This document shows positions 4,239-54,851 of a DNA stretch of 56,368 nucleotides, piece by piece. A program made the translations under genes and the position numbers. How positions within the stretch are numbered: the first letter of the stretch is position 1; the number at the start of each line of letters is the position of its first letter. The notes under the pieces were generated by a model, which did no database searches, was not told the DNA's origin, and was given only the letters and a program-made list of their open reading frames with translations. Source of the DNA: a virus; IMG/VR virus record IMGVR_UViG_3300045988_080971, positions 1-56,368 of that record, one strand, 5' to 3'.

Positions 4239-4460
4239 ATGAAATGGAGAAAAGCATTCACTGATGGTAATTTGGGTATGTATTACATTAGTGAAAATAA
4301 CAAATATAGTATTCATGATGAATACGTGAAAGTAGAAAGAAGGAAAAAATATAGCGTTGGATATAGACAGAAATGGATTTTAAAAAACCTTGAAAACAAC
4401 AATACTGTATTTGAGGGCGCAACGTTAAAAAGCTGTAAAGCATATGCAGAAAACTTATAA
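4239..4460 (+). CDS. Hypothetical protein (73 aa)
   Basis: First ORF after P1, GGAGGG RBS; the track ORF 4176 begins inside the promoter, so the ATG at 4239 is preferred. Confidence 0.5.
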   Translation: MKWRKAFTDGNLGMYYISENNKYSIHDEYVKVERRKKYSVGYRQKWILKNLENNNTVFEGATLKSCKAYAENL

Positions 4461-4464
4461 TAAC

Positions 4465-4481
4465 TTGTGAAGCGATAACAC
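4465..4481. repeat. Direct repeat copy 1 (ttgtgaagcgataacac)
   Basis: Identical 17-mer recurs at 4598-4614; similarity extends to about 27 bp with mismatches. Confidence 0.9.
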
Positions 4482-4597
4482 GTAAAACACTTTATAAAAT
4501 AATAAAAGGAGGACACTTACATGAGACAGATCTGCACACACGGCATAAGAGATAAGCCCTAATAAATAACAAATAAAAGAATATAAAATGATCAGAT

Positions 4598-4614
4598 TTG
4601 TGAAGCGATAACAC
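4598..4614. repeat. Direct repeat copy 2 (ttgtgaagcgataacac)
   Basis: Identical to 4465-4481; non-coding region. Confidence 0.9.
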
Positions 4615-4862
4615 ATATAAACACCAATATATCAATACGAGGATTGGGGTAGGTTGAGGTGGATGTAGTAGTATTGATATATTTTAGCTTGTATCAATGA
4701 GGAAGTGGTTGAGTGTAGGGAGTGAATACAGACGTGTATTGTGTAATTGATACAAACGTTATAAAATATTTGGAGAATATATGACTTGATAGAGTAGGTT
4801 GAGTCCTCTATATTCGTTATTGTATTTTGCAACTACTCTGTGAAATACAATCCAAATATTAT

Positions 4863-4934
4863 AGCCTTATTGCCAAAAGGAAAGGCATCGGACTTTGATT
4901 CCGACATTTGCGGGTTCGACTCCCGCTAGGGCTG
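4863..4934 (+). tRNA. tRNA-Gln (anticodon UUG), no encoded CCA
   Basis: Hand-folded cloverleaf. Acceptor agcctta/tagggct (one G-U). D arm with GG. Anticodon stem tcgga/tccga with loop cTTTGat. 5-nt variable loop. T arm gcggg-ttcgact-cccgc. Discriminator G. Confidence 0.85.
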
Positions 4935-5136
4935 TGTTTCCTGGCAGACAAAAAGAAGAAAGCACATGATATTGAAAAATGGTGTGATTGGGAACTTGAG
5001 TGAGAATAAAGCTGGGAATATCACTCGTGTGCACATGAATGGAATATAAGTGGTTGCGTTTATGGGCTTATAGTGAATGTTCTGGAGGTTGTTCATTCAA
5101 AAACTAAACCAACTAAAAAGAAAGGAAAAAGAAAGT

Positions 5137-5817
5137 ATGGGAAGAATCAATTATGATGAAGTAGACAAGTACGGGAACAATTCAGACACAGAGTTTTTGA
5201 AGTTGACGAACGATGGGGACATGATTACCGCACAGCTTATGGTAAAGGATATGGAAGATGTGGATATCTATGCTTGTCATCAGGCTGTTGTCGGACAGTG
5301 GGATGATGGTAACGATAAGACAAGATTTGTGAATTGTCTGAGAAATTATGATGATCCGCTTGATGTTTGTCCAATGTGTGCCGCAGGGTTAAAGACACAG
5401 GTTGTAATGATGCTTGCAATGGTTGATCAGCAGGATGGCAAGATTAAGATTTGGAATCGTGGAAAGACGTTCATTCCAAAGATTAAGAATTTTGTAAATC
5501 GTTGGGGAGATATGACAATGAAGCCAGTTGACATCATAAGAAACGGAAAAAAAGGAGACAAGAAAACAACATATGATATTCAGATTTCTCCAGCAGAACC
5601 AATGGATATTTCACAGTACGAAAAGCCTGAATTTTTAGGCGGATATATCATGGATAAATCAGCTGATGAAATGCAGGAATACCTTGATACAGGAAGTTTT
5701 CCAGATGCAGATAATAACGATAATGAAGATAATACACAGGTAAGACGCAGAAACACTGAACCACTTCCATCAAGACGAGGAGCAAGTAGAGCAACAAGCA
5801 GAAGGGTGGGTATGTAA
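5137..5817 (+). CDS. ssDNA-binding protein, T4 gp32-like (putative)
   Basis: H-x18-C-x10-C-x2-C zinc motif resembles the gp32 H/C3 site; acidic D/N/E-rich C-terminal region; sits between primase and polymerase. Confidence 0.45.
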   Translation: MGRINYDEVDKYGNNSDTEFLKLTNDGDMITAQLMVKDMEDVDIYACHQAVVGQWDDGNDKTRFVNCLRNYDDPLDVCPMCAAGLKTQVVMMLAMVDQQDGKIKIWNRGKTFIPKIKNFVNRWGDMTMKPVDIIRNGKKGDKKTTYDIQISPAEPMDISQYEKPEFLGGYIMDKSADEMQEYLDTGSFPDADNNDNEDNTQVRRRNTEPLPSRRGASRATSRRVGM

Positions 5818-5818
5818 T

Positions 5819-5944
5819 ATGGCAACAAAAAATAAGCATAGAGAAAGAAGCCACAGAAGTTATAAACATAAAGATCAGTATAAGCAGTATGTGACCGGAA
5901 AGTTTACATTTATGAAACGCATGTTATCAAGATTAAACTGGTAG
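5819..5944 (+). CDS. Small basic protein (41 aa), hypothetical
   Basis: ATG 2 nt after the upstream stop; K/R/H-rich. Confidence 0.35.
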   Translation: MATKNKHRERSHRSYKHKDQYKQYVTGKFTFMKRMLSRLNW

Positions 5945-5954
5945 GGAGGATTAT

Positions 5955-6200
5955 ATGACATTAAGAGATACAGTAGGAATGATGAATAGCAATGATTATA
6001 AAGAAAGGTTTAAAGCGGAGTATTATCAGTTGGTTACAAGATATAGAGGTCTTAAGTCAATGATTACAAAATGGGATGCGGGTACATTGAATTTTGAACC
6101 AACTTGTCCAAGAAGCACATATAATATGCAGATTAAGGCTATGACAGATTATATTGCAGTTCTTGAAGCAAGAGCAGTTATGGAAGATATTGTATTATAG
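5955..6200 (+). CDS. Hypothetical protein (81 aa)
   Basis: GGGAGG RBS, tight packing. Confidence 0.55.
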   Translation: MTLRDTVGMMNSNDYKERFKAEYYQLVTRYRGLKSMITKWDAGTLNFEPTCPRSTYNMQIKAMTDYIAVLEARAVMEDIVL

Positions 6201-6211
6201 AGGAGGATTAT

Positions 6212-8473
6212 ATGGCATTATCATTTGCAAGACCAAAAAGCAATGATAAGAATATAATCAAAAAATCTAAAACAATAACAAATAGAACAAGTATCAGGAG
6301 CGGCGGAAATAATCTAGCCGCTCAAATACAATCTATAGTTGCTATTGCTAACCAAAAATTAGCAATTCATAAAGATGATTATATTCTTATTAGAGAACCA
6401 GATCAACTATATGAATATATGAAAGAAATGAAACAAGTTGGAGAGGGTGCGTTAGATACGGAGACCACAGGATTAAATCCATTACTTGTAGATATAGTCG
6501 GCGGATGTATTTATACACCTGGACAAAAAGCGGCATATATTCCAATCAATCATAAGTCGTATATTACAGGTGTAAGAACAAAGGAACAGATGGATGAGGA
6601 AACTGTTTCAAAGATTATGAAAGAGTTTCATAAGGATATTAGATGGATTTTTCATAATGCAAAGTTTGATATAAGAATATGTAGAAAGACGTTAGGTATC
6701 GACATCTTGCCATATTGGGACACAGAGATTGCCGCTCATTGTATAGATGAAGAAGAAAGTCACAGATTGAAAGACTTGCACCTTAAATATTGCGATAGTA
6801 AAGATACAGAGTCTTTGACATTTGACGCATTATTTAAGGGAGTAACATTTGATAATATTCCAATCTCAACAGGATATTTATACGCGGCGGGTGATGCAGT
6901 AAAGACATATGAATTATATCAATATCAAAAAACACTTTTGAATAGAAGAGTTTTATCCGGACCTTATAATGTATTCAAGAATATTGAAATGCCTTTGATT
7001 CCAGTTGTAGCAGACATGGAAGATAGAGGTGTATGTCTTGACTTTGATGTGTGTAAAAATTTACACGAAAAATATCATAAGATAAAGGAAGAAAGACAAA
7101 AACAAGCTGATGAAACAATAGCACTGTATAAGGATGAAATTGATAATTATAAGATGAAAAATCCTAATAATAAGTTGTCAGATCCTATATCATTATCAAG
7201 TCCAACTCAGCTTGCAATATTATTTTATGATATTTTAGGATTAGAAAGTCCAGATAAAAAAGCACCTAGAGGAACAGGAGAAGAGATTTTAAAACATTTT
7301 GCACAAGGCAAGCACCAAAATCTATGTGAGAATATTTTAGCCTTGAGAAATGTTGATAAGCTATTAAGCACTTATATTGATAAGATGCCTGAAATTGTGC
7401 TTACAGATGGAAGGATTCATGGTGAGTTTAAGCAGTATGGAGCTAAGACTGGTCGATTTAGTTCTAAAGACCCAAACTTACAGAATATCCCTTCGCATAA
7501 CAAAGATATTAGACAAATGTTTAAGGCACAGGATGGGTATGTACTTATAGGGTCGGATTTCAGTCAGCAGGAACCGATGGTTACTGCACACTTATCGGAT
7601 GATAAAAAAATGCAAGAAGCATTTATAAACGGCAAGGATATATATGCGACAATCGCCGCACTTGCATTTCATAAACCATATGAAGAGTGTAAAGAGTTCA
7701 GAAAAGATGGAACAGTAAATCCAGCCGGAAAAGAAAGAAGAACACAAGCTAAGAGCATAGTTCTTGGAATTTTGTATGGTAGACAAATTCCATCTATTGC
7801 AGAACAGCTTGGAGTTTCTACAAAGGAGGCGCAAGCCATATATGATAAGGTTATATCTTCATTTCCTGCACTCGGTAAATTTATCGAAGATTCACGAGAA
7901 ATGGCAAGAACCGAAGGATATGTAACTACTGCATGGGGTAGAAGAAGACATTTACACGATATGCAGTTAGAACGATATGAATTTTCATATAGCGGAAAAG
8001 TCACTAACTTCGACCCATTAGCATTTGGAAGTGAAGTATCTACAGAAGTTCCAAAGAAAGTAAAAGACAGTTATATCAAACAACTTGATAAAGCATTTGG
8101 GTGGAAAAAGAAAAATGATATAATTCAAAAAGCATTAGCTGAAGGAATTAAGATCAAGGATAATGGCGGATTTATAGCACAGGCGGAAAGACAATGTGTA
8201 AATGCAAGAGTACAAGGTTCAGCGGCGGATATAACAAAGCTGGCTATGATTGCTATAAACAATGATGAAAGAATGAAAGAACTTGATTTCCATTTGCTGA
8301 TACAGGTACATGATGAAGTAATAGGAGAATGTCCTATTGAAAATGCAAAGGAAGCAGGAGAAAGACTTTCATATCTTATGAGAACTGCACCTAGTCATTT
8401 GATTAAACTTCCATTCAAGTGCGATGTGGATTTTACTAAAAACTGGTACGGCGAAGAAGTGGAGATTGAATAA
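6212..8473 (+). CDS. polA: DNA polymerase I (family A) with 3'-5' exonuclease domain
   Basis: Exo motifs ALDTETTGL, HNAKFDI, YAAGDA; pol motif A GSDFSQQEP, motif B RRTQAKSIVLGILYG, motif C LIQVHDEVIGE. Confidence 0.9.
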   Translation: MALSFARPKSNDKNIIKKSKTITNRTSIRSGGNNLAAQIQSIVAIANQKLAIHKDDYILIREPDQLYEYMKEMKQVGEGALDTETTGLNPLLVDIVGGCIYTPGQKAAYIPINHKSYITGVRTKEQMDEETVSKIMKEFHKDIRWIFHNAKFDIRICRKTLGIDILPYWDTEIAAHCIDEEESHRLKDLHLKYCDSKDTESLTFDALFKGVTFDNIPISTGYLYAAGDAVKTYELYQYQKTLLNRRVLSGPYNVFKNIEMPLIPVVADMEDRGVCLDFDVCKNLHEKYHKIKEERQKQADETIALYKDEIDNYKMKNPNNKLSDPISLSSPTQLAILFYDILGLESPDKKAPRGTGEEILKHFAQGKHQNLCENILALRNVDKLLSTYIDKMPEIVLTDGRIHGEFKQYGAKTGRFSSKDPNLQNIPSHNKDIRQMFKAQDGYVLIGSDFSQQEPMVTAHLSDDKKMQEAFINGKDIYATIAALAFHKPYEECKEFRKDGTVNPAGKERRTQAKSIVLGILYGRQIPSIAEQLGVSTKEAQAIYDKVISSFPALGKFIEDSREMARTEGYVTTAWGRRRHLHDMQLERYEFSYSGKVTNFDPLAFGSEVSTEVPKKVKDSYIKQLDKAFGWKKKNDIIQKALAEGIKIKDNGGFIAQAERQCVNARVQGSAADITKLAMIAINNDERMKELDFHLLIQVHDEVIGECPIENAKEAGERLSYLMRTAPSHLIKLPFKCDVDFTKNWYGEEVEIE

Positions 8474-9636
8474 TGGAATTGTATCTAGCTGGCTCACAAC
8501 AACCTTTTGAACGTGTAAAGAGAGAGAGAGAGGATGATTTAATGGATTTATATTTAGCTGGAGAATATGTATTTACAGGAGAAAGAAAATTAGATATCGG
8601 AATTATAAGAAATCGTCTTCTTTCTTTTGATTATCAAAAAAAGTTTGTAGATACCATAATAGATTGGAAAGATAATATGGAGTTGTATTTAGCAGGTGCT
8701 GATAAATTTGGAAAAGAAGAGGTGAAACAGTATATGAAACTTTATTTAGCAGGGATGGAAGAGTCTTGTGTGGATAAGATTGACTGCAATGCCCTTTTCA
8801 GCTATATTGATCGGGGCAAACTACAATTTGATAAACTGAAAGATTTTATAAAACCCGGAAAATTATTTATAGATTCTGGTGCGTTTAGTGCATGGACAAA
8901 AGGCTCCAAAGTAAATGTGAAAGAATACATTAGCTGGCTGAACGAAAGATCCGATGATATAAATCTTTGCGGTCAAGTGGATGTTATCCCTGGAGATAGG
9001 GTTTTTGGGGCTACACCTAAACAGGTTCGGGAAGCCGCACAATCAACATGGGATAATTATCTTTTTATGAGAAAAAGACTAAAAAATCCGGATTCCTTGT
9101 TATATACATTTCATGTAGGTGAACCAATCGAATTTCTAAAACAGGCTTTAGAATGGAGAGATGAAAATGGAAATCCTATTCCTTATATGGCATTTGGTGG
9201 TATGGTTGGAAAGCCTGCTAAGATAAGGGATGTTTTCCTTGAGAAATGTTTCCGAACAATCCGGGAATCCAGTAATCCAAATATTAAGGTTCACGCTTTT
9301 GGTATGACGGATTTTGATTTATTAGAGAAATATCCTATATATTCTGCTGATAGTACAAGTTGGATTATGGTGGGGGCAATGGGAAATGTTATGAGTGATT
9401 ATGGAAATATAGCCGTATCAAATAATCAAATTCATGATAAGAATCATTATAGTCATTTACCAAAGAAAGCTATTGAGGATTTTAATAAGACAATTCAGGA
9501 ATTTGGGTTTACTTTGGACGAATTAGCAGAACATCGGGATAATCGTATATTATTTAATGCTTTGTATATGCAGAAGAAAGTAAAGGAATTAAATAAGAAA
9601 GAAAGAAAATTTTCTTATAGAAAGAGGTTATTTTAA
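8473..9636 (+). CDS. dpdA: DpdA-like DNA guanine transglycosylase (TGT superfamily) with duplicated N-terminal extension
   Basis: FIDSGAFSAW, FHVGE, MAFGGMVG, VHAFGMT and YSADSTSW motifs; TAATG overlap with the polA stop; adjacent preQ0 pathway genes. Confidence 0.7.
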   Translation: MELYLAGSQQPFERVKREREDDLMDLYLAGEYVFTGERKLDIGIIRNRLLSFDYQKKFVDTIIDWKDNMELYLAGADKFGKEEVKQYMKLYLAGMEESCVDKIDCNALFSYIDRGKLQFDKLKDFIKPGKLFIDSGAFSAWTKGSKVNVKEYISWLNERSDDINLCGQVDVIPGDRVFGATPKQVREAAQSTWDNYLFMRKRLKNPDSLLYTFHVGEPIEFLKQALEWRDENGNPIPYMAFGGMVGKPAKIRDVFLEKCFRTIRESSNPNIKVHAFGMTDFDLLEKYPIYSADSTSWIMVGAMGNVMSDYGNIAVSNNQIHDKNHYSHLPKKAIEDFNKTIQEFGFTLDELAEHRDNRILFNALYMQKKVKELNKKERKFSYRKRLF

Positions 9637-10553
9637 TGGATTTCAAATGTAGAGATTATTTATTTTCTAAAGACGATTGGTGTGATATTCGGGATATAGA
9701 AGGAGAAGAAAATGTATTAAATTCTACATTAATTCAAGAAGCTTTTGAAAAAATCCTAGATGATTATAATCCAAAATATAAATATGCAATTTTTAGCTTG
9801 TGTACTTCAACAAGACCATATCTTAAATCTAGGAAATGGAGTATGTATTATAAATGTTTTGGAAAATCTTGTGAATTAATAATATGTTCTAATGGAGGCA
9901 TAATACCTATTGAATATATGAATTGTTTTCCATTTTTAGAATATGATGCTCCACATACAAAAGAATTTACCCCACAGTATAAGAGATTATTTGTTAATAG
10001 ATTAAATAAATTTTTAGATAAATTTTCTTTTGAAAAAATAATTTTTATTTTTACACCAAACTCAAGAAATTATGAAGCATTATTGGAATTTCCTTTACCG
10101 GATAATTCTATTCTTATACCTTCATTAAAAATGTATGAAAATATAAAGAAAGGAATAGATGATAGGTACATTGGGGTATCTAGGACACGTGATATATTAT
10201 GTTGTGATACGATACTGTCTTATATAAAAAGATTTTTTTGTATTGAAAGTAATTATCTTGATATATTATATGAGAAATATCCTAATTCCCCTAAACCTAG
10301 TATGGATTCTTTGTTCAACAAGATGTTAAAAACTTTAGAAGTTGATAAAGGATATTCTTTGGAACAACTAATTTCAAAAATAATTTCATTAAATCCTATT
10401 TATTCCAGGGTTTATATTAGTAAGACAATTAAAGGCCATACAAAAAACATAGAATCAGAATTTAATAAAGAGGATAATCTTGTTTATGTGGATGGTTTAT
10501 ATTATCTTCTAAATTCTGATAAAAAGAAGGACAAACATAAAAAATTATTTTAA
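9636..10553 (+). CDS. DUF5591 / ArcS-like protein (putative 7-deazaguanine tailoring enzyme)
   Basis: LCTSTRPYLKSRKW resembles the ArcS signature PC-x3-KPY-x2-S-x2-H; TAATG overlap with the dpdA stop; very AT-rich gene. Confidence 0.45.
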   Translation: MDFKCRDYLFSKDDWCDIRDIEGEENVLNSTLIQEAFEKILDDYNPKYKYAIFSLCTSTRPYLKSRKWSMYYKCFGKSCELIICSNGGIIPIEYMNCFPFLEYDAPHTKEFTPQYKRLFVNRLNKFLDKFSFEKIIFIFTPNSRNYEALLEFPLPDNSILIPSLKMYENIKKGIDDRYIGVSRTRDILCCDTILSYIKRFFCIESNYLDILYEKYPNSPKPSMDSLFNKMLKTLEVDKGYSLEQLISKIISLNPIYSRVYISKTIKGHTKNIESEFNKEDNLVYVDGLYYLLNSDKKKDKHKKLF

Positions 10554-10571
10554 AAACTTTTCTAAAAAGGG

Positions 10572-10599
10572 TTGACTTTTATTTTTTATGTGTTACAAT
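10572..10599 (+). promoter_or_regulatory. Promoter cassette P2 (TTGACT-N16-TGtTACAAT)
   Basis: -35 at 10572-10577, -10 at 10594-10599; same tatgtgttacaatata core as P1. Confidence 0.7.
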
Positions 10600-10648
10600 A
10601 TAATCAAACCAAGGGAAACACATAAAAAATAAAAGGAGGCTTAATATT

Positions 10649-11176
10649 ATGCATTATTTATCAAGAAGGGACAACGAAACAAGGATTACTGTAAAGGAAC
10701 GGTATTCAGATGGAAATACTGTCGTAGCTGAATATCTTAATGGGGATAAGCAAGGTAAGACAGTTTCCTTCACTCATAGTACCTTAAAGAGATGGTGGAA
10801 AAAGGTAGATATAGAGGGGATATCCACAAAGTCCGAAAATTTAGAAAATAAAACTAAGAAGACAACAAGTAAGAAAAAACCTACAAAAATTGACAGAACA
10901 GAAGATATAAAAAAGATAGTTGAGATGTTCACCGATGATTATGAGTATAAATATTATGATTCAGTTAAATGTTATAAAATTTATGATATTATGAATCAGG
11001 CAACAGTTATTGCTGAAGTTTATCCCCGTAGAAAAAATATTGAAGTGCGTGTAAGGAATGTGAAAGAGAATGTAAAGGTAAATTATAAAGACGGTTATAA
11101 ATATTATTTACCAGTTCATTATTATGTTCCTTATGAAACGGATTATATCAAAATTATTAAGGATCTTTTATCTTAA
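10649..11176 (+). CDS. Hypothetical protein (175 aa), lysine-rich central linker
   Basis: AAAGGAGG RBS; first gene after P2. Confidence 0.55.
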   Translation: MHYLSRRDNETRITVKERYSDGNTVVAEYLNGDKQGKTVSFTHSTLKRWWKKVDIEGISTKSENLENKTKKTTSKKKPTKIDRTEDIKKIVEMFTDDYEYKYYDSVKCYKIYDIMNQATVIAEVYPRRKNIEVRVRNVKENVKVNYKDGYKYYLPVHYYVPYETDYIKIIKDLLS

Positions 11177-11312
11177 TCTTTTAATGTCTGTGATACCGGA
11201 CAGATACGGTCAATATCATAGAAAGTGAGGAAACCACTATGAAAAAACCTAGAGCTCCTTCTTAATTTTTTAATTTATTATCTTATAAATTAAATTATGT
11301 GGAGGTATAATT

Positions 11313-11777
11313 ATGGACAAAAAAGAATATATGAATTTAGGTGTATGTGAAGCCACTACCACAATGTACTTGAATATCGGTGGTCCATTTGGAGCAGTTG
11401 TTGTCAAAGACGGAGAAATTATTTCCGTTGCAAGTAATACAGTTCTTGGGGATAACGATCCAACAGCCCACGCAGAAGTGAACGCAATTAGAAAAGCTTG
11501 TAAAAAGCTTGGAACATATGATTTGACTGGGTGTGAATTATATGCCACAGGTTATCCATGCCCAATGTGTTTATCAGCTATCATATGGGCTAACATTAGA
11601 AAAGTGTATTATTGTAATGATGTAAAACAGGCAGAGAATATTGGTTTTCGGGACGATTTCATTTACGATTATATAAAGAATGGAAATCCGGATGTATTAG
11701 ATCTAGAATCTTGTACAACGGAACAAGGTTTAGGTTTATATGATCAATATACAGGGATGAACAAAATCATTTATTAA
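11313..11777 (+). CDS. CDA-fold zinc deaminase, GuaD-type guanine deaminase-like
   Basis: GGPFGAVVVKDG, DPTAHAEVNAIRKAC, PCPMCLSAI and GFRDDFIYDY closely recall Bacillus subtilis GuaD (about 155 aa). Confidence 0.7.
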   Translation: MDKKEYMNLGVCEATTTMYLNIGGPFGAVVVKDGEIISVASNTVLGDNDPTAHAEVNAIRKACKKLGTYDLTGCELYATGYPCPMCLSAIIWANIRKVYYCNDVKQAENIGFRDDFIYDYIKNGNPDVLDLESCTTEQGLGLYDQYTGMNKIIY

Positions 11778-11790
11778 GGAGGAAAAATAT

Positions 11791-12495
11791 ATGAAAGCAT
11801 TAGTATTAAATTCAGGTGGTGTAGATTCAACAACTTGTGTTGCAATAGCGGTAGATAAATATGGCAAAGAAAATGTTATAACAGCCTCTTTATATTATGG
11901 ACAGAAACATGATAAAGAATTACAGTGTGCTAAAAAGATCGCTGAATATTATGGTGTAAGACATATTGAGGAAGATATTTCAAATGTTATGAAGTACGCG
12001 GGTGAAGTTTGTTCTCTTGTTAAAGGTTCTAAAGAAGAGATTTTGGATATGAGTTATGCCGACCAGATCAAACAGAATGGAGAAGGACGTGTTGGTACTT
12101 ATGTACCTTTTAGAAATGGATTATTATTATCCATTGCCACAGCTTTTGCAGATAGTCTTTTCCCAGGAGAAGAAGTAGAAGTGTTCTATGGAGCTCATGC
12201 AGATGATGCGGCAGGTGAAGCATACGCAGATTGTTCTCCAGAATTTGCAGATGCTATGGATAAGGCAATAAATATTGGAACTTATGGAAAAATCCATATC
12301 AATCGACCACTTATCCACATGAATAAAGCGGAAGTGGTCAAAACCGGATTATCTTTGGGTGTACCTTATGAAATGACATGGAGTTGTTATCATGGAGGTG
12401 AAAAAGCCTGTGGAAGATGTGGAACGTGTATTGATAGGAGACACGCGTTTGAAGCCAATGGTGTAGGAGACCCTATTGAATATGAGGAGGATTAA
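11791..12495 (+). CDS. queC: 7-cyano-7-deazaguanine (preQ0) synthase QueC
   Basis: PP-loop LNSGGVDSTT; C-terminal zinc cluster CGRCGTCIDR. Confidence 0.9.
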   Translation: MKALVLNSGGVDSTTCVAIAVDKYGKENVITASLYYGQKHDKELQCAKKIAEYYGVRHIEEDISNVMKYAGEVCSLVKGSKEEILDMSYADQIKQNGEGRVGTYVPFRNGLLLSIATAFADSLFPGEEVEVFYGAHADDAAGEAYADCSPEFADAMDKAINIGTYGKIHINRPLIHMNKAEVVKTGLSLGVPYEMTWSCYHGGEKACGRCGTCIDRRHAFEANGVGDPIEYEED

Positions 12496-12499
12496 AAAA

Positions 12500-12853
12500 A
12501 TGTATTATGTATCAAAAAGAATGGAAATTGCAGGAGCTCATTATTTAGAGCTCCCATATGACAGCAAGTGTGGGAACTTACATGGGCATAATTGGATAAT
12601 TACCGTCCATTGTAAATCAGACAAGCTCACTGATTATGGAATGATCGTAGATTTTACAAAGATTAAGAAAGAAATACACGATAAGTTAGACCATTCTTGT
12701 GTGAATGAGGTAGTTTGTCCACTCAACCCAACGGCTGAGAATATAGCAAGATGGGTATTTGAAAGAGTTTCAGATATTTGTGAAGTCGGAACGTGTTATA
12801 AGGTAGAGGTACAGGAAAGTGAAGGAAATATTGCTACCTATGTGGAGGATTAG
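12500..12853 (+). CDS. queD: 6-carboxy-5,6,7,8-tetrahydropterin synthase QueD
   Basis: HGHNW motif, about 117 aa; GAGGAGG RBS 10 nt upstream of the ATG at 12500. Confidence 0.85.
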   Translation: MYYVSKRMEIAGAHYLELPYDSKCGNLHGHNWIITVHCKSDKLTDYGMIVDFTKIKKEIHDKLDHSCVNEVVCPLNPTAENIARWVFERVSDICEVGTCYKVEVQESEGNIATYVED

Positions 12854-12855
12854 AT

Positions 12856-13500
12856 ATGAAAGTAGTAGAAATATTTAAAAGCATTGATGGTGAGGGCAAA
12901 CGAGCTGGTTTACCCACCACATTTGTAAGATTATTTGGATGTAATTTGAATTGCTCATACTGTGATACAAGATACGGCTGTGAGGGGGATAAGTATACGA
13001 TTATGAGTATCCCTAATATAATAGATACATTAGAAAGGTATGGAACTAAATCAATTACAATCACTGGAGGGGAGCCACTTATACATCCAGGAATAAATCA
13101 TCTTGTTGAGGTGCTACTCCATAGAGGTTATTGGGTTAATATTGAGACAAACGGTTCACAGTACATCGGGCATCTTCCAACTAACCCAAATGTTTTCGTG
13201 ACAATGGATTATAAATGTCCTTCCAGTGGAATGCAAGATAAGATGTGTTTAGCTAATTTTCGTGAATTATCCAATACGGATGTCTTAAAATTTGTTGTAG
13301 GCTCATATGAAGACCTAGTATGTGCTTTAAGTATATTAGAGGAATATAAACCGTCTGCACAGGTTTATTTCAGCCCAGTATTTGGGGAGATTGAACCAGC
13401 GGCGATTGTTGATTTTATTTTAGACAATAAATTGGATAATTGTAAGATACAGTTGCAAATGCACAAGATAATTTGGGAACCAAATAAGAGAGGAGTATAA
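12856..13500 (+). CDS. queE: 7-carboxy-7-deazaguanine synthase QueE (radical SAM)
   Basis: [16 protein letters not shown] cluster motif; GGEPL. Confidence 0.85.
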
Positions 13501-13501
13501 G

Positions 13502-14074
13502 ATGATAGATAAGAAAAGAATTGAAAAGGCAGTAAAAGAAATCTTAATTGCTTTAGGGGATAACCCGGAAAGACCCGGACTTGTAGATACACCAAAAAGA
13601 GTAGCTAAGATGTATGAGGAAGTATTTGAGGGAATGAACTACACCAACGATGAGATCGCAGAAAAATTCTGCAAATGTTTTGACACAGATAACGAGGATC
13701 TTGTTGTTGTAAAGGATATTCCAATTTTCAGTTATTGTGAACATCATCTAGCTTTGATGTATAATATGAGTGTGTCTATTGCTTATATTCCAAATGGAAA
13801 GGTATTAGGTCTAAGCAAATTTGCTCGGATTGCGGATATGGTTGGAAAGCGTCTACAGTTGCAGGAAAGAATTGGTTCCGATATAGCTGATATTATTCAG
13901 TTGGCTACTGGATCAAATGATGTGTTGGTTGTTGTTGAGGGGGAGCATAGTTGTATGACAGCTAGAGGTATTAAGAGTCGAGGAGCTAAAACAAGAACCG
14001 CGACAATCCGGGGGTTATTTGAGTCTAATGTAGAGCTTCGCAAAGAAGCCTATTCTTTAATGAGTTTGAACTGA
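13502..14074 (+). CDS. folE: GTP cyclohydrolase I (FolE)
   Basis: FSYCEHHL and RLQLQERI motifs, 190 aa. Confidence 0.9.
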
Positions 14075-14087
14075 AGGAGGAAAAAGA

Positions 14088-15188
14088 ATGAAGGTAGTAA
14101 CAAGTAGAATGAAAGAAGCAGTAAACAAAGCAATTAAAGGAGCAGGATTTAATAATCTTATTCCTATTACCTCAATGATTGGTATTAAATTGTCAGATGG
14201 AAAGTTAAGATTACTTACAACAGACATGACTAATACATTATGTATTATCATTGACAAGGTAGCTGGGGACGATATGGACATCACAGTAGATGCAGATAAG
14301 TTTGGAAAACTGATTGCAAAGACAACTTCGGAAGATATTGATTTATCTGTAAAAGATGATGTACTTTTTGTCAAAGCAAACGGAATTTATAAGATTCCGT
14401 TGATTTCAGATGAAGAAGGACTTATCTCATTCCCAGATGTGAATCAGGAGTATGGTGCACCTCCTGAGAAGTGGACAGACGTTAAGCTTTCAAGTATAAT
14501 GCAGGCTTATAATATCAATAAATCAGCATTAGCAAAAACACTTGAGAACCCGGCTCTAACCGGTTACTATTGCGGAGATACTGTTATTTCAACTGATGCA
14601 AATGTAATTACATTCAATGGATTTAAGATGTTTGCATGGGATTTTCCAGTATTGATTTCAGCACAGCAGATGGCGTTAATCTCCCTATTTAAGGAGGAAG
14701 ATATAAAAGTAACTTGTGACCCTGAAAGAATTATTTTTGTAACAGATACACAGATTGTTGAAGGAAGTTTGATGGAAGGGGTTGAGGACTTCCCAGCTAA
14801 TGAAGTAAACGCTTATCTTGATGAGGCATTTACATCTTCTTGCAAAGTACCAAAGGATTTACTTCTTTCCGTACTTGATCGTCTTGCACTATTCATTGAA
14901 CCATATGATAAGAATGGAGCATATTTCACATTCGGAAGAAAGGGTATCAATATTCATAGTAAAAAGGACGCATCTACAGAGACTATCAACTATGTGGAAA
15001 GCAAGGACTTTGCGCCGTTTGTGTGTTGTGTGGATATTCCAATGTTGAAAGAGCAGTTGCAGGCTAACCCGGACGATACAGTGAAGATCTGTTACGGAAA
15101 TGAAAATGCGTTGAAGATTGAGAGCGGAAAAGTAACACAGGTTATAGCTCTACTTGAAGATGAGGAACTTGACAATATAAACGCATGA
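14088..15188 (+). CDS. DNA sliding clamp, beta (DnaN)-like
   Basis: 366 aa; N-terminal pattern IPITSMIGIKLSDGKLRLLTTD...DADKFGKLI matches the beta-clamp domain 1 layout; replisome context. Confidence 0.65.
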   Translation: MKVVTSRMKEAVNKAIKGAGFNNLIPITSMIGIKLSDGKLRLLTTDMTNTLCIIIDKVAGDDMDITVDADKFGKLIAKTTSEDIDLSVKDDVLFVKANGIYKIPLISDEEGLISFPDVNQEYGAPPEKWTDVKLSSIMQAYNINKSALAKTLENPALTGYYCGDTVISTDANVITFNGFKMFAWDFPVLISAQQMALISLFKEEDIKVTCDPERIIFVTDTQIVEGSLMEGVEDFPANEVNAYLDEAFTSSCKVPKDLLLSVLDRLALFIEPYDKNGAYFTFGRKGINIHSKKDASTETINYVESKDFAPFVCCVDIPMLKEQLQANPDDTVKICYGNENALKIESGKVTQVIALLEDEELDNINA

Positions 15189-15227
15189 TTATATAATTAA
15201 TAGTGCAACAAAAATATCATATTGTAG

Positions 15228-15257
15228 CACCTCTCTAGAAATAGAGAGGTGTTTTTT
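15228..15257 (+). terminator. Intrinsic terminator
   Basis: 10-bp stem cacctctcta/tagagaggtg, GAAA loop, then a T6 run. Confidence 0.85.
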
Positions 15258-25993: not shown

Positions 25994-26258
25994 AGAAATA
26001 TATCCTGGGATATTCACTGGAGTTTATCGAGGTGTAGAGTGCGGAGTTGATAATGATACAGGAAATTGGAATTATTCTGGAACACTTCCATTTCCTGACG
26101 TGTCCCAGCCTAGATTTAGCAGTTATGATAACGTCATTGTTTTTAGTAGCTTTGAGGATTGTGTGGGCGCCTTAAAGAAATATATAGATAGTGTATATGA
26201 AAGGCGGGAAGAATATGCAAAGCTTTCCAAGACGATGGAACATAAAGACCAAAATTGA
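25983..26258 (+). CDS. Hypothetical protein (91 aa)
   Basis: ORF overlapping neighbours within the clamp-loader operon. Confidence 0.45.
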   Translation: MRLKEIYPGIFTGVYRGVECGVDNDTGNWNYSGTLPFPDVSQPRFSSYDNVIVFSSFEDCVGALKKYIDSVYERREEYAKLSKTMEHKDQN

Positions 26259-26577
26259 ATATTTACAGCGTAAGATTATATTAAATAGTATAGCATACTA
26301 TGAACTAAATACAAATAAGCTCACAGATAAACAGTATGACGAGTTGAGCAGGCAGTTGGTAGCTATGCAAGTAGAATACCCGAACATAATGGACACTCAG
26401 TATGGTTATGTGTTTTATGACTTTGATGGTTCAACCGGGTTTGACTTGTATCATAGACTTAATAGGCATGACAAAGAATATTTATATAATATAGCTTGTC
26501 ATGTTTGCAATGATATAAAATCTATAAAGCAAGCAAAACCTAAACCAGTCAAGAAAAAGAAAGGAGTATTATTTTGA
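26215..26577 (+). CDS. Small protein resembling the NAD-ligase (LigA) domain Ia, with basic ...VLF tail
   Basis: IEYLQRKIILNSIAYYELNTNKLTDKQYDELSRQLVAMQVEYP resembles LigA Ia; no KxDG adenylation motif. Confidence 0.35.
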   Translation: MQSFPRRWNIKTKIEYLQRKIILNSIAYYELNTNKLTDKQYDELSRQLVAMQVEYPNIMDTQYGYVFYDFDGSTGFDLYHRLNRHDKEYLYNIACHVCNDIKSIKQAKPKPVKKKKGVLF

Positions 26578-44409: not shown

Positions 44410-44410
44410 T

Positions 44411-45220
44411 ATGATGAAAAGAAATGACATATATTATCAAAATTCAAAGGGCGAGGTAGTAAGCCTCGTCCGTCCGCCTTACATGATGTTGGCGGACACA
44501 GATATATTTGACTACACATGGGAGAACGGCATAAGACAGACAGGCGACAGGTCAATAAAAGTAGTTATAAGCGGGGCAACTCATAATGCATATCAGTACG
44601 CACTAAAACGACTGACTAACATGTTAGAGTACGATACCACGCATGGCACATATGGCAGATTATATTATAAAGGTTGGTATCTTAAGTGCAGACTGACAGC
44701 CTGCACACGTCCTGCAAGCTTTATCATGCGGCAAATGTCCACAATAGAATATACTGTATCTATTGACTCGGCAAGTCCGGGCTGGCATAAGGACATTATA
44801 CACACATACAAGTATGCAGACACTACAGTGTTTGAGGGTAAGGGCTACCCATACGGCTACCCATACGGCTATAATGCGGTACTGTCTACTAATGCAAGTG
44901 TGGATATGGCTGACAGCGGGCTATATGATGTGCTCATCAAGATAAGACCAAATGAGGCTATTGCATCGCCGATCATACGTGTAGGAAATTACACCTATGG
45001 AGCACAAGGAATAGGGCTTGATGTGGGGCAGGTAATGACTATCAACACAGCCACACGCACAATAGATATTAACGGTGGTAATATATTCAGTCGCCGTGTA
45101 TCTGATGACATGCTACACAAGGCAGAGTTTGAGACAGGTACACAGGCGATTCTGTGGAATGATAACTTTGATTTTGATTTGACGTTAATAGCAGAGAGGA
45201 GTGAGCCGACATGGATATAA
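44411..45220 (+). CDS. Distal tail protein (Dit)
   Basis: Immediately after the tape measure; size. Confidence 0.6.
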   Translation: MMKRNDIYYQNSKGEVVSLVRPPYMMLADTDIFDYTWENGIRQTGDRSIKVVISGATHNAYQYALKRLTNMLEYDTTHGTYGRLYYKGWYLKCRLTACTRPASFIMRQMSTIEYTVSIDSASPGWHKDIIHTYKYADTTVFEGKGYPYGYPYGYNAVLSTNASVDMADSGLYDVLIKIRPNEAIASPIIRVGNYTYGAQGIGLDVGQVMTINTATRTIDINGGNIFSRRVSDDMLHKAEFETGTQAILWNDNFDFDLTLIAERSEPTWI

Positions 45221-46170
45221 TACTTGCAAACAAGGCACTAGCCGAACAGGGTGTTATATATACCGATTATAGTCTTGATTTTGACACCACCAACACAATG
45301 GATTATAAGCTAACAGCAACAAGGGCTATATATGACAAGCTGAGCACAGCGACATATCTGTATATACCTGGTACTGAGTACGGCGGTATCATTGACAGCA
45401 TAGCGCATAATACAAGTGATGACAGCATTGTAGCGAGCGGGCGAAGTTTTAGGGGACTGCTCAACAGCAAGATTATAGCACCAGACAGCGGACAAGATTA
45501 CAAAGTGGTAAGCGGCAATCTTGCAGATATACTTGATAGCATACTTGCAGATAATAACCTTGACTATCTGTATATGATAGACCCTAACCTCACATGGATT
45601 ACGCTGAGCAACTATCAGATAGCAAGGTATTGCAGTGTGCTGTACTTACTTAATGCGCTTGAGACAAAGACAGGGCTAAGCCTGTATCTTGCGTGGTCAG
45701 CTAAATATCACAAGGTAGTCATCACATACAGACAGCCGATTGACTGGACAAGTAAGAGCCTGTATGTGCAGACCGACATAACCACAACAAAAACATCACA
45801 TAAAGTCAACCATTTGGTATGTCTTGGAAGTGGAGAATTAAAGGACAGGATGCGTATTGACCTTTACGCTGACACGCAAGGGCGCATATCCACAGTGCGG
45901 AGCATAGTTGGGGCGGATGAATACACGCAAGTATATGACTACCCTAATGCTAAAGATGTGGACGACCTAAAGACAAGCGGAACGGCAAAGCTGAAAGAAC
46001 TTATTGCAGACACACCGCTAAAAGTTGAGGTTAGAGATGGGGCGTATGCAGTCGGTGATATAGTCGGTGGTTATGACGACCTTATGGACATAAAGACAAA
46101 GGCGACTATATCTAACGTTGTGGTTAATGTGGAGAATGGTGTAATATCCTACACATTTACAACATCATAA
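45211..46170 (+). CDS. Tail-associated (Tal / baseplate hub-like) protein
   Basis: Follows Dit and overlaps its end. Confidence 0.5.
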   Translation: MDIILANKALAEQGVIYTDYSLDFDTTNTMDYKLTATRAIYDKLSTATYLYIPGTEYGGIIDSIAHNTSDDSIVASGRSFRGLLNSKIIAPDSGQDYKVVSGNLADILDSILADNNLDYLYMIDPNLTWITLSNYQIARYCSVLYLLNALETKTGLSLYLAWSAKYHKVVITYRQPIDWTSKSLYVQTDITTTKTSHKVNHLVCLGSGELKDRMRIDLYADTQGRISTVRSIVGADEYTQVYDYPNAKDVDDLKTSGTAKLKELIADTPLKVEVRDGAYAVGDIVGGYDDLMDIKTKATISNVVVNVENGVISYTFTTS

Positions 46171-46210
46171 TTTTGTAATATAATAAATAAAAACAAGGAG
46201 GGTAAAAACT

Positions 46211-47005: not shown

Positions 47006-47017
47006 GGAGGTATGAGA

Positions 47018-47935: not shown

Positions 47936-47938
47936 AGT

Positions 47939-48220
47939 ATGATGGAGTTTATTATCGCAATAACCACATCAGTAGTCACAGGCGGATTGACTCTTATAGG
48001 GGTTATATTCACGAGCCGAAAACAACATGACGTGACAGTGCAGGAGATCAAGACAGAACTAGCCTTGATGCATCAAGAGATTGGACAGCTTGAACACAAG
48101 CAAGACATCCACAATGGAGTTATAGAAAGGGTGTATCAACTGGAAAAGGCAGTTGATATACTTGACGAAAGACAAAAGACAGCCAACGATAAAATAGATG
48201 GTCTTGAGAAAGGAGCGTGA
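47939..48220 (+). CDS. Membrane-anchored coiled-coil protein (lysis-associated?)
   Basis: N-terminal TM FIIAITTSVVTGGLTLIGVIF; sits between the endolysin and holin. Confidence 0.45.
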   Translation: MMEFIIAITTSVVTGGLTLIGVIFTSRKQHDVTVQEIKTELALMHQEIGQLEHKQDIHNGVIERVYQLEKAVDILDERQKTANDKIDGLEKGA

Positions 48221-54849: not shown

Positions 54850-54851
54850 AC

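Follow-up and report, generated by a model that had tools for sequence, protein, structure and literature searches.

A gene cassette between the DNA polymerase and sliding clamp genes of a phage probably forms a module that replaces guanine in DNA with a 7-deazaguanine base, in a four-step scheme of base exchange, conversion of the inserted base, removal of guanine, and docking on the clamp. Our best guess for the product is that dPreQ0 is inserted and then converted, in part or in full, to dG+. We analyzed the cassette within the whole available stretch of 56,368 nucleotides (the window), and every island ORF that an initial annotation had listed is present on the + strand at its position. 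The core reading of that annotation, that preQ0 is made and then inserted into DNA via DpdA, is supported as the predicted function of these genes.

Layout of the cassette and preQ0 synthesis

Downstream of the polymerase gene come DpdA, ArcS2, a 175-aa ORF (unk175), a deaminase, and QueC-QueD-QueE-FolE, directly followed by the clamp gene:

6212..8473, +, family A DNA polymerase with 3'-5' exonuclease (Pfam DNA_pol_A, E 5e-90; DNA_pol_A_exo1)
8473..9636, +, DpdA, predicted DNA guanine transglycosylase, Dp-1-like (DpdA1-type) (phrog_887 "queuine tRNA-ribosyltransferase", E 2.6e-47)
8473..8753, +, DpdA N-terminal extension with four M-x-LYLAG copies at aa 1, 24, 69, and 88 (direct repeats D1, D2)
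9619..9633, +, DpdA C-terminal tail R-K-R-L-F-COOH, putative sliding-clamp docking motif (homologue and locus comparison)
9636..10553, +, ArcS2, DUF5591 core of archaeosine synthase, long form (PF17884, 45.3 bits versus cut-off 26)
10554..10565, +, relic AAACTTTTCTAA, ancestral dpdA 3' end, K-L-F-stop (comparison with relatives without ArcS2)
10572..10599, +, promoter-like TTGACT-16-TACAAT (with TG) between ArcS2 and unk175 (TTGAC box conserved in relatives; weak evidence)
10649..11176, +, unk175, cassette-specific protein of 175 aa (88 homologues)
11313..11777, +, GuaD/GSDA-type zinc deaminase, CDA fold (best PDB match B. subtilis guanine deaminase 1WKQ, E 1.1e-34)
11791..12495, +, QueC, preQ0 synthase (PF06508, E 3e-55; TIGR00364, 166.4 bits versus cut-off 150.3)
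12500..12853, +, QueD, 6-carboxytetrahydropterin synthase (PF01242, E 3e-29)
12856..13500, +, QueE, radical-SAM CDG synthase, clostridial type (TIGR03963, 268 bits versus cut-off 260.1)
13502..14074, +, FolE, GTP cyclohydrolase I (PF01227, E 4e-64; NF006826, 245.9 bits versus cut-off 162)
14088..15188, +, phage beta-type sliding clamp (phrog_947 "DNA polymerase processivity factor", E 2.3e-34; weak PF00712 match)
15226..15253, +, strong intrinsic-terminator-like hairpin, 12-bp stem then T-run (terminator scan)
26191..26577, +, small ligase Ia-like-domain protein between clamp-loader genes (PF22745, E 1.6e-17)

The complete GTP-to-preQ0 set announced by the initial annotation is present in Pfam and NCBIfam matches, although in the reverse of the order it gave (FolE-QueD-QueE-QueC). 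QueC, QueE, and FolE exceed their NCBIfam cut-offs; QueD, whose start is the ATG chosen by gene callers (the longest ORF begins at a TTG, 12476), falls slightly below that of TIGR03367 (86.7 versus 89.25 bits) but above the Pfam cut-off. Homology shows these four to be the enzymes predicted to convert GTP to preQ0. QueC is 234 aa long with no Gat domain fused to it (Pfam), and tblastn found no homologue of QueF, QueT, YhhQ, or DpdA2 in the window at the sensitivity used. In a CX3CX2C scan of window ORFs of at least 80 aa, QueE was the only plausible radical-SAM enzyme, the pattern occurring once more in an 88-aa reading frame (54837-55100) that does not resemble a radical-SAM protein. The three absences noted initially (QueF, Gat-QueC, and a RaSEA-type second radical-SAM enzyme) thus stand by tblastn, motif scan, and Pfam.

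The 8473-9636 product does belong to the TGT/DpdA family, as had been proposed. It matches the phrog_887 profile, is 38-41% identical to the DpdA proteins of two Streptococcus phages, Dp-1 (the closest) and MS1, and of Flasso, a Bacillus phage, and its AlphaFold model retrieves only tRNA-guanine transglycosylases from the PDB with Foldseek (17 of 17 matches with E<=1e-3; best 1IQ8, E 4.8e-7). Its conserved core begins around aa 88, with D134 and D293 invariant in a 52-sequence alignment. Homology shows it to be a TGT-fold enzyme akin to phage DNA transglycosylases of proven activity. A duplication at the 5' end of the gene gave rise to the N-terminal extension, and even the TAATG junction recurs in the second of the DNA repeats. 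Homologues carry zero to four copies of the M-x-LYLAG motif, and aa 1-44 are modeled with AF2 pLDDT <50.

The polymerase stop codon overlaps the dpdA start in a TAATG at 8471-8475, and the dpdA stop overlaps the ArcS2 start in the same way at 9634-9638; both overlaps reported initially are there, and from them we infer the translational coupling also claimed. Promoter-like sites are no commoner than in shuffled sequence. Of the terminator-like sites found on the + strand from the polymerase to the cassette end, the 15226..15253 hairpin is the strongest. The carrier of this DNA-hypermodification module is a siphovirus-like phage of about 56 kb from gut metagenomes, and it encodes one tRNA-Gln. 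The location of the island beside replication genes is as first described, but is not distinctive, since Dp-1, MS1, Flasso, and the Queuovirinae examined share the dpdA-clamp position.

C-terminal tails and the sliding clamp

DpdA and ArcS2 end alike, the latter in K-H-K-K-L-F. All 120 of the best DpdA homologues end in LF, and across related loci the basic-LF tail occurs on 62/73 DpdA ORFs and 8/27 ArcS2 ORFs, the other 19 of which lie in more distant loci. It occurs on none of 499 ORFs from 12 other gene families (PolA, QueC, QueD, QueE, FolE, deaminase, clamp, SSB, DnaB, primase, Cas4-like, and unk175). The tail recurs on other cassette genes: a SAM methyltransferase and two DUF6884 proteins right after DpdA, a GNAT-like gene immediately upstream of it, and two ORFs of no assigned family immediately upstream of the clamp gene. 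In cultured phages, DpdA1 ends in Q[ED]LF, LQDLFDE, or [KR][KR]LF, while the DpdA2 of Vibrio phage nt-1 has no LF tail.

Clamp-binding motifs of the bacterial consensus are of the QL[SD]LF type, with a Q. From its resemblance to this type and from the gene neighborhood, the basic-LF tail is probably a clamp-docking motif. We regard it as unlikely, though a serious prospect, that the tail does not bind the clamp and instead contacts another replisome protein, DNA, or a DpdA-partner enzyme, or acts as a stability signal. In Firmicute-type phages the residues before LF are basic rather than the consensus Q, and the window polymerase has no such tail. Yet many DpdA homologues end in KKLSLF or Q[ED]LF, which resemble QL[SD]LF, and dpdA adjoins the clamp gene, on its 5' side, in all eight cultured lineages checked (with one ORF between in EC151). 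Moreover, the only other basic-LF-tailed protein in the window, the 26191..26577 product (KKKKGVLF), sits among clamp-loader genes, and in one related locus (L023) a family B polymerase bears an FF tail matching that of the neighboring 410-aa protein. On the clamp-docking reading, DpdA and ArcS2 would dock on the phage sliding clamp via their tails, coupling modification to replication; we put this fourth step of the scheme at an even chance. A tail common to DpdA, ArcS2, and the enzymes that fill the slot beside DpdA in relatives, and never found on the metabolite enzymes, appears to be new.

ArcS2 and the final base

The match to PF17884 bears out the DUF5591/ArcS-like assignment of the initial annotation. 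ArcS2 is 32% identical to nt-1 ArcS2 (VPFG_00169; E 2e-24), it matches PDB 2Q07 (E 1.2e-7), and, being the long form, it has about 125 additional residues at its C-terminal end. It carries the motif LC-x3-RPY-x2-S-x2-W, the same degenerate motif as nt-1 ArcS2 (alignment A1), in which residues of the canonical ArcS motif are altered (P to L, K to R, H to W). Among 17 homologues with 30-74% identity to the window protein, 20 residues are invariant, including C56, R60, P61, and Y62 of the motif; invariance at such low identity points to purifying selection on the active site.

Relative to three related loci (L049, L035, and L034), ArcS2 is a precise 928-nt insertion (9624-10551). The relic at 10554..10565 is what the inserted cassette left over by sequence comparison, and the gene is a recent acquisition, kept in frame with its TAATG overlap. 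It is absent from the closest relatives of this phage among the loci compared, so ArcS2 is dispensable. Such an add-on, missing in the closest relatives, is apparently new.

The absence of RaSEA, QueF, and Gat-QueC beside an ArcS-like gene had been taken as unusual, a view that is not supported, because a DUF5591-only ArcS2 without RaSEA is an already described phage form, and the nt-1 protein co-expressed with DpdA2 in E. coli gave dG+ (PMC10516641, Table 3). That targeted assay counted only 4-7 dG+ per 10^6 nt, with dPreQ0 dropping from 926 to 0 (PMC10516641); this low yield while dPreQ0 vanished suggests that the real ArcS2 product or substrate may differ. nt-1 virion DNA contains mainly dPreQ0, with traces of dADG and dG+ (PMC6884629). 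The ArcS of T. kodakarensis transfers lysine, and its product requires RaSEA to become G+. This enzyme is inactive on the free preQ0 base; ArcTGT can swap preQ0 in tRNA back to guanine but cannot reverse the exchange once ArcS has formed its product (PMC11298593).

DpdA would very likely exchange guanine in new phage DNA for preQ0, freeing guanine; Dp-1 DNA, for comparison, contains dPreQ1 (PMC6884629). ArcS2 would then convert the nitrile of the DNA-bound preQ0, rather than of the free base, to a formamidine, locking the base against reverse exchange. Whether this conversion yields dG+ is a toss-up in our estimate: canonical ArcS requires RaSEA for G+, and the window has none. The initial warning that dPreQ0, dG+, or some other derivative might be the final base is supported.

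About one chance in four, in our judgment, goes to an ArcS2 that is inactive or otherwise active, for instance as an amidohydrolase forming dADG, leaving virion DNA mainly with dPreQ0 or dADG as in CAjan or Rosebush-type phages. The degenerate motif, the composition of nt-1 virion DNA, the possible amidohydrolase role proposed by Hutinet et al. (PMC6884629), and the relatives that manage without the gene all fit such a case; it is opposed by the invariant residues, by the overlap preserved in a recently gained gene, and by the dG+ obtained with nt-1 ArcS2. It is rather improbable that ArcS2 halts, in the absence of RaSEA, at an amino-acid adduct of dPreQ0 such as dPreQ0-lysine, which would be an undescribed DNA base. 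The lysine transferase activity of T. kodakarensis ArcS, the lack of a second radical-SAM gene in the window, and the loss of ~900 dPreQ0 per 10^6 nt for a gain of only 4 dG+ in the nt-1 co-expression would agree with an adduct. However, that dG+ was detected in E. coli, which lacks RaSEA (PMC10516641), the motif Lys and His of canonical ArcS are replaced, so the chemistry may differ, and no DNA has given direct evidence of such an adduct.

Accessory genes and relation to known systems

The initial annotation was right that a GuaD-type deaminase and a 175-aa protein lie outside the described pathway, and both are recurrent cassette members. The deaminase (key residues N42, H53, E55, C83, C86, D114, and the C-terminal Y154) shares with GuaD 1WKQ and GSDA 7DBF the HAE and PCxxC zinc motifs, N42, GF(R/D)DxFIY, and the C-terminal Tyr but, unlike them, is encoded inside a phage DNA-modification cassette. 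Across 46 unique homologues the C-terminal Tyr is invariant (46/46), with conservation of N42, HAE, PCPMC, and IGFRD as well. The terminal Tyr185 of AtGSDA forms a bond to N7, and the enzyme leaves 7-deazaguanosine unreacted (PMC10663702). Since the phage enzyme keeps the residues that read guanine N7 and O6 (the C-terminal Tyr and Asn42), it probably acts as a sink for guanine and leaves 7-deazaguanines alone. As the third step of the scheme, we tentatively propose, at slightly under an even chance, that it would destroy released or competing guanine, or its nucleoside, and so pull the base exchange forward.

An ordinary housekeeping role in nucleotide or tRNA metabolism (a dCMP/dCTP deaminase or a TadA-like tRNA deaminase), separate from the 7-deazaguanine pathway, seems improbable. 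Such deaminases are common in phages, the PHROG label is dCMP deaminase (phrog_174, E 6e-19), and the best NCBIfam match is TadA, although far below cut-off (65.5 bits versus 150). GuaD and GSDA clearly outscore TadA (122.7 and 98.9 versus 77.9 bits; E 2.5e-27 for AtGSDA 7DBF and 6.9e-21 for TadA), in alignments that run through the GuaD-specific GF(D/R)DxFIY segment, and the terminal Tyr never varies. DpdA lies within 8 kb in 44/51 viral loci with a deaminase relative, in at least seven gene orders, and there is none within 8 kb in 7/51; the association is partly inherited synteny inside one broad phage clade. A guanine-deaminase-like gene recurring in DpdA cassettes is apparently new, and no deaminase is mentioned in the two principal papers on this kind of phage DNA modification (PMC10516641, PMC6884629).

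unk175 has no Pfam, PHROG, or NCBIfam match, and none of its 88 homologues has a Pfam domain. In its AF2 model (pLDDT 82) a Lys-rich linker connects a pair of small, beta-rich domains, and Foldseek returned nothing significant (best weak matches YjbR and the T4 MotA C-terminal domain). The gene lies 3' of dpdA within the cassette in the two contexts looked up, and tblastn adds five loci. The protein may bind DNA.

Among known systems, nt-1 also has a DUF5591-only ArcS2 with the shared degenerate motif (SLC-x3-RPY-x2-S-xKW) and an aromatic tail at its C-terminus (…ANFF), no RaSEA, and phage-encoded FolE and QueC close by. It is, however, a 247-kb T4-like phage whose DpdA2 has no detectable similarity to the window DpdA; its ArcS2 lacks the C-terminal addition, and the surveyed region has no GuaD-type deaminase or unk175 homologue. 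Dp-1, MS1, and Flasso have the closest DpdA proteins (ending in …RRLF, …NRLF, and …GKLF), a similar genome size, and the same synteny of preQ0 genes, DpdA, clamp, Cas4-like nuclease, resolvase, recombinase, and clamp loader. Where the window has ArcS2, Dp-1 and Flasso have QueF, and Dp-1 and MS1 have transporters (QueT, Vut_1); their DpdA proteins have one N-terminal LY(F/L)AG motif instead of four, and the cassette regions retrieved have no deaminase or unk175 annotated. The Queuovirinae, whose hosts are Gram-negative, likewise combine a DpdA1-type enzyme (~30% identity, E ~1e-22; tail Q[ED]LF or LQDLFDE) with FolE, QueD, QueE, and QueC, and dpdA precedes the clamp gene in each of the four examined, with nothing between them in three and a single intervening ORF in EC151. 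CAjan and iggy, with QueC, make dPreQ0, while 9g makes dG+ through a Gat-QueC fusion, for which the window has ArcS2 instead. The archaeal ArcTGT-ArcS-RaSEA pathway follows the same logic of preQ0 exchange and then nitrile modification on the polymer, blocking the reverse reaction, and shares the DUF5591 catalytic core. Its substrate is tRNA rather than the DNA proposed here, and the window lacks its RaSEA and TGT-like N, C2, and PUA domains and has the motif K and H replaced by R and W.

That the window DpdA itself acts on tRNA, in queuosine or archaeosine synthesis, is very improbable: the Dp-1 and MS1 genes were historically annotated as queuosine biosynthesis and the phage carries its tRNA-Gln, but DpdA has no Pfam TGT family match, no PUA domain, and no Zn-binding Cys cluster of tRNA TGTs in its sequence, and its closest characterized relatives act on DNA.

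Replacement of guanine by 7-deazaguanines in phage DNA is a known anti-restriction strategy. The presumed purpose of the module is likewise to shield the phage DNA from restriction and similar defenses.

A 7-deazaguanine cassette between polymerase and clamp

The phage genome is complete or nearly complete (56,368 bases, G+C ~33%), and all of its recognised genes lie on the plus strand. They include replication genes (DnaB-like helicase, primase, SSB, family A polymerase, sliding clamp and clamp loader subunits) as well as genes for a Cas4-like nuclease, a resolvase, a UvsX-like recombinase, terminase, portal, tape measure and endolysin. A tRNA-Gln gene (anticodon TTG) at 4862-4935 separates the primase region from the SSB gene, and a small ORF at 5955-6200, just 5' of the polymerase, is assigned the Pfam domain 'Sequestin' (PF21825) in annotation precomputed for this contig. 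G+C rises to 0.44-0.45 at 44001-48000, against ~0.33 elsewhere, across the end of the tape measure, the minor tail genes and the endolysin; this segment may be a recently exchanged host-interaction module. An identical contig was found in the ENA and Logan metagenome assemblies, and a megablast search of 50,697 phage records with the island returned zero matches, with no cultured phage matching at the DNA level: the phage is known from metagenomes only. Genes were assigned to families by their Pfam, PHROG and NCBIfam scores, mostly above curated cut-offs, as follows.

Genes of the island and its borders
6212-8473, +, family A polymerase (5' border)
8473-9636, +, DpdA-like protein (PHROG)
9636-10553, +, DUF5591 protein, ArcS2 (Pfam)
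10649-11176, +, 175-aa protein of unknown family (unk175)
11313-11777, +, CDA-fold deaminase (PDB match to GuaD)
11791-12495, +, QueC (Pfam, NCBIfam)
12500-12853, +, QueD (Pfam)
12856-13500, +, QueE (NCBIfam)
13502-14074, +, FolE (Pfam, NCBIfam)
14088-15188, +, sliding clamp (3' border)

By its gene content, the island is recognizable as a 7-deazaguanine DNA-modification system of known kind; homology, family scores and the DpdA fold uphold the initial annotation on this point. The preQ0 pathway is complete: FolE, QueE and QueC exceed the NCBIfam equivalog cut-offs, and QueD scores above its Pfam cut-off and 2.5 bits short of TIGR03367. The four genes had been named correctly but in reversed order. 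The TAATG stop/start overlaps claimed on either side of the DpdA gene, with the polymerase (8471-8475) and with ArcS2 (9634-9638), are both present in the sequence. Three proposed absences were also borne out. No homologue of QueF, nor of QueT, YhhQ or nt-1 DpdA2, was found in the window at the sensitivity used; Pfam finds no glutamine amidotransferase domain in QueC, hence no Gat-QueC fusion; and a scan of window ORFs of at least 80 aa gave QueE as the only one with a plausible CX3CX2C motif, so that neither a second radical-SAM enzyme nor, specifically, a RaSEA partner was found. One further instance of the motif lies in an 88-aa frame (54837-55100), which does not resemble a radical-SAM enzyme. 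In phage 9g, by comparison, Gat-QueC is used rather than an ArcS-like protein.

The strongest terminator-like hairpin lies just 3' of the clamp gene (15226-15253), and a promoter-like site, with a TTGAC box that relatives also conserve, lies between ArcS2 and unk175. These positions suggest that DpdA and ArcS2 are joined to the polymerase and hint, faintly, that the metabolic genes may have a promoter of their own; the promoter scan gave 53 sites against 48.9 in shuffled sequence, which is no excess. At 15169-15253, a perfect sigma-70 consensus promoter (TTGACA-17-TATAAT) overlaps the clamp gene's 3' end, and the strong terminator hairpin comes directly after it.

DpdA, ArcS2 and the predicted base

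The DpdA ORF matches phrog_887, the phage "queuine tRNA-ribosyltransferase" family (E 2.6e-47), and is 38-41% identical to DpdA of Streptococcus phages Dp-1 and MS1 and of Bacillus phage Flasso. Dp-1 gp7 aligns at 41% identity (E 3e-47) and Queuovirinae DpdA at ~30% (E ~1e-22); similarity to nt-1 DpdA2 was not found. Pfam returned zero matches for this protein and for its best 120 homologues, and searches against the PDB with the single sequence or a 52-sequence profile gave noise only, so a fold search was needed. The AF2 model, computed with 52 homologues as input, has a pLDDT of 72 (80-97 across most of the core), and all 17 Foldseek PDB matches at E<=1e-3 are tRNA-guanine transglycosylases (TGTs), the best being 1IQ8 (E 4.8e-7, probability 1.00). 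As modelled, the product has the TIM-barrel fold of the TGT superfamily. D134 (LFIDSGAF) and D293 (SADSTSW) are invariant across the 52-sequence alignment and, judging by resemblance of motifs, may be the counterparts of the catalytic Asp102 and Asp280 of Z. mobilis TGT. The TGT/DpdA membership that had been proposed is thus upheld by PHROG, homology and fold matches, and the predicted function is insertion of preQ0 or a derivative into DNA. Bacterial DpdA was ruled out as the identity of this ORF, since it scores 23.8 bits against family NF041059, far below the cut-off of 200. The nearest characterised relative works on DNA, as indicated by the dPreQ1 present in Dp-1 DNA (PMC6884629).

The N-terminus of DpdA (8473-8753) contains four copies of M-x-LYLAG, every one beginning with ATG, and the second DNA copy also duplicates the upstream TAATG junction. 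Copy number varies from 0 to 4 among homologues, and the model shows this part of the protein as disordered; repeated duplication of the gene's 5' end is its apparent origin.

ArcS2 carries PF17884/DUF5591 (aa 37-138, 45.3 bits against a cut-off of 26) as its sole significant domain, and Pfam detects no TGT-like N, C2 or PUA domain in it. It matches PDB 2Q07 (E 1.2e-7) and, over aa 7-171, nt-1 ArcS2 (VPFG_00169; 32% identity, E 2e-24). The canonical ArcS motif PC-X3-KPY-X2-S-X2-H is not matched; the protein reads LC-TST-RPY-LK-S-RK-W, in which C, PY and S are retained and P, K and H substituted, and nt-1 ArcS2 has the same degenerate motif (LC-x3-RPY-x2-S-x2-W). An ArcS-like protein without RaSEA had been singled out as unusual, but it is no oddity, because this is the published state of phage ArcS: a 2023 survey of phage 7-deazaguanines described phage and virus ArcS proteins as consisting of the DUF5591 core only and named them ArcS2, and co-expression of nt-1 ArcS2 with nt-1 DpdA2 in E. 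coli yielded dG+ (PMC10516641). By analogy with nt-1, the ArcS2 of this phage is predicted to convert dPreQ0 to dG+; the most likely product of the island is dPreQ0 converted wholly or partly to dG+.

The combination of ArcS2 and a Dp-1-type (DpdA1-type) DpdA is what is new here. Among the 50,697 phage records the ArcS2 query matched only nt-1-like vibriophages and one archaeal virus; in metagenomes, where the pairing is common, 69 ArcS2 homologues were found, many on ~59-kb contigs ordered PolA-DpdA-ArcS2-...-clamp. The closest relatives, with polymerases 87-92% identical, carry DpdA-unk175-deaminase-QueC-QueD-QueE-FolE without ArcS2. In alignment, the ArcS2 region (9624-10551) is a clean 928-nt insertion in this phage, across which the relatives' coordinates run on unbroken, and directly 3' of the ArcS2 stop (within 9624-10565) lies a relic, AAACTTTTCTAA, of the ancestral DpdA ending K-L-F-stop. 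From these sequence features ArcS2 is recognizable as a recent plug-in. Natural near-isogenic phages with and without ArcS2 thus exist: the record IMGVR_UViG_3300045988_125416 also carries ArcS2, and the relative IMGVR_UViG_3300045988_103864 lacks it. Set apart by a 928-nt indel, such phages offer a ready comparison for assigning the ArcS2 product.

C-terminal tails and the sliding clamp

DpdA ends in RKRLF (9619-9633) and ArcS2 in KHKKLF (10533-10550); in both, basic residues precede a terminal LF. The only other tailed protein in the window is a small ligase-Ia-like protein encoded among the clamp-loader genes (KKKKGVLF, 26560-26574); the primase C-terminus (…CKIIF) has a final F but no basic-LF pattern and was not counted. 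An LF ending is found in all of the best 120 DpdA homologues, many of which end in KKLSLF. In related viral loci (L001-L092) the tail is present on 62 of 73 DpdA ORFs and 8 of 27 ArcS2 ORFs, and on none of 499 ORFs for PolA, QueC, QueD, QueE, FolE, deaminase, clamp, SSB, DnaB, primase, Cas4-like nuclease and unk175. It is missing from nt-1 DpdA2 and from the more distant ArcS2 proteins. Elsewhere in the cassettes, tails occur on one SAM methyltransferase and on two DUF6884 proteins (L041 6576-7280, L055 5986-6486), each encoded directly 3' of DpdA, on a weakly GNAT-like protein encoded just 5' of DpdA (L079 8510-9052), and on the products of two ORFs just 5' of the clamp (L040 10076-10603, L041 9245-9775), proteins of 175-176 aa for which no family match was found. 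The DUF6884, GNAT-like and 175-176-aa proteins are candidates for new modification steps at the DNA level.

In sequence the tail is similar to QL[SD]LF, the beta-clamp-binding pentapeptide of bacteria, and to the clamp-binding C-termini of T4-type polymerases. We infer that it is a putative clamp-docking signal marking presumed DNA-acting enzymes: it separates these (DpdA and ArcS2, with the methyltransferase, DUF6884 and GNAT-like proteins of relatives) from the metabolite enzymes. In eight lineages of cultured phages the clamp gene directly follows dpdA or is separated from it by one or two small ORFs, and DpdA there ends in Q[ED]LF, LQDLFDE or [KR][KR]LF. The tail distribution, together with this conserved adjacency, predicts clamp-coupled, co-replicative modification. 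If the tail does dock on the clamp, ArcS2 would act on dPreQ0 already within DNA, in keeping with the reported inability of archaeal ArcS to use free preQ0 base as a substrate (PMC11298593). The DpdA papers examined make no mention of the clamp, a processivity factor or the C-terminus in such a context, and our literature search found nothing relevant on DpdA and the sliding clamp.

In a different lineage (L023), the family B polymerase (4260-6776) ends in LERFF and a 410-aa protein beside ArcS2 (10639-11871) in NHDFF. This pair of FF tails recurs in three further loci (L024-L026), the contigs being 69-119 kb, and forms a parallel pair in another replication system.

A guanine deaminase-like accessory and cassette variants

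The GuaD-type identity first given to the deaminase was confirmed by PDB scores. Its best match is B. subtilis guanine deaminase (1WKQ, E 1.1e-34, 122.7 bits), followed by Arabidopsis guanosine deaminase (AtGSDA; 7DBF, E 2.5e-27, 98.9 bits), against 77.9 bits for TadA (1WWR) and 30 bits for T4 dCMP deaminase, and the alignment to GuaD and GSDA spans a GF(D/R)DxFIY segment that is missing from TadA. The zinc motifs H53-A-E55 and P82-C83-P-M-C86 are conserved in 46 homologues. A C-terminal Tyr (Y154, the last residue) is present in 46 of 46 distinct homologues, and conservation of N42 is at least 95%; when the final 60 residues alone were searched against the PDB, to align this Tyr with GuaD, no useful match came back. 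The roles of both residues are taken from AtGSDA, where the C-terminal Tyr bonds N7 of the guanine ring and where 7-deazaguanosine is inert, its hydrogen bonds to Tyr and Asn both being lost (PMC10663702). By analogy, the phage deaminase would remove guanine, as base or nucleoside, and spare 7-deazaguanines.

We surveyed 51 viral-contig loci with a relative of this deaminase at 46-92% identity. A DpdA gene lies within 8 kb in 44 of them and two further loci have other 7-deazaguanine genes, while the position of the deaminase relative to other genes varies over at least seven arrangements; it thus appears to belong to DpdA/preQ0 cassettes in general. A role as ammonia supplier to ArcS2, analogous to the Gat domain of Gat-QueC, was rejected, since only 2 of the 51 loci contain ArcS2. 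The recurrence instead suggests that, in some phages, removal of displaced guanine drives a reversible exchange towards completion: archaeal ArcTGT can swap preQ0 out of tRNA again for guanine (PMC11298593), so a guanine sink would render the DpdA exchange effectively one-way. The word "deaminase" is never used in the main papers on phage 7-deazaguanines, and literature searches found no link between these modifications and a deaminase.

None of the 88 homologues of the 175-aa protein has a Pfam domain. In two genomic contexts examined directly, and by tblastn in five others, the gene is located within the cassette downstream of dpdA. The protein model (pLDDT 82) consists of two small beta-rich domains with a Lys-rich linker between them. 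Foldseek gave no PDB match at E<=1e-3; the C-terminal domain weakly resembles YjbR and the T4 MotA C-terminal domain in structure, a hint that the protein may bind DNA.

Cassette content varies among relatives. One locus (L086, 5151-9169) reads PolA-DpdA-SAM methyltransferase (LF-tailed)-unk175 homologue-QueD-QueE-FolE-clamp, with QueC and deaminase absent between polymerase and clamp; this gene set predicts a CDG-derived, possibly methylated, DNA base outside the described pathways. Five near-identical ~59-kb phages (L005-L007, L009-L010) differ in cassette cargo alone: QueC, a YhhQ/Vut_1 transporter, QueD or the deaminase may be there or missing. Gene swapping appears to be concentrated in the cassette.

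A more ambitious model, which we consider improbable, would have replisome-tethered base exchange, with DpdA and ArcS2 held on the clamp by their LF tails, a guanine-specific deaminase as sink for the displaced base, a RaSEA-less ArcS2 making an undescribed base (for example an amino-acid amidine adduct of dPreQ0), and the tailed SAM methyltransferase, DUF6884 and GNAT-like proteins in the same slot of relatives making further 7-deazaguanine derivatives. The reading we favour remains a known type of system in which the novelty lies in the DpdA1-type and ArcS2 pairing, the recurrent guanine-deaminase-like accessory and cassette-specific 175-aa protein, and the relationship of tail and clamp.

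Modifying DNA with 7-deazaguanines is one of the major ways in which phages counter restriction, and it can protect from Cas9 in vitro. Taken together, our findings leave the basic pathway picture unchanged, and the locus extends a known type of system rather than representing a new one. It gives testable handles on whether preQ0 is converted to G+ as free base or in DNA, on differences in modification level between phages, and on further derivatives.
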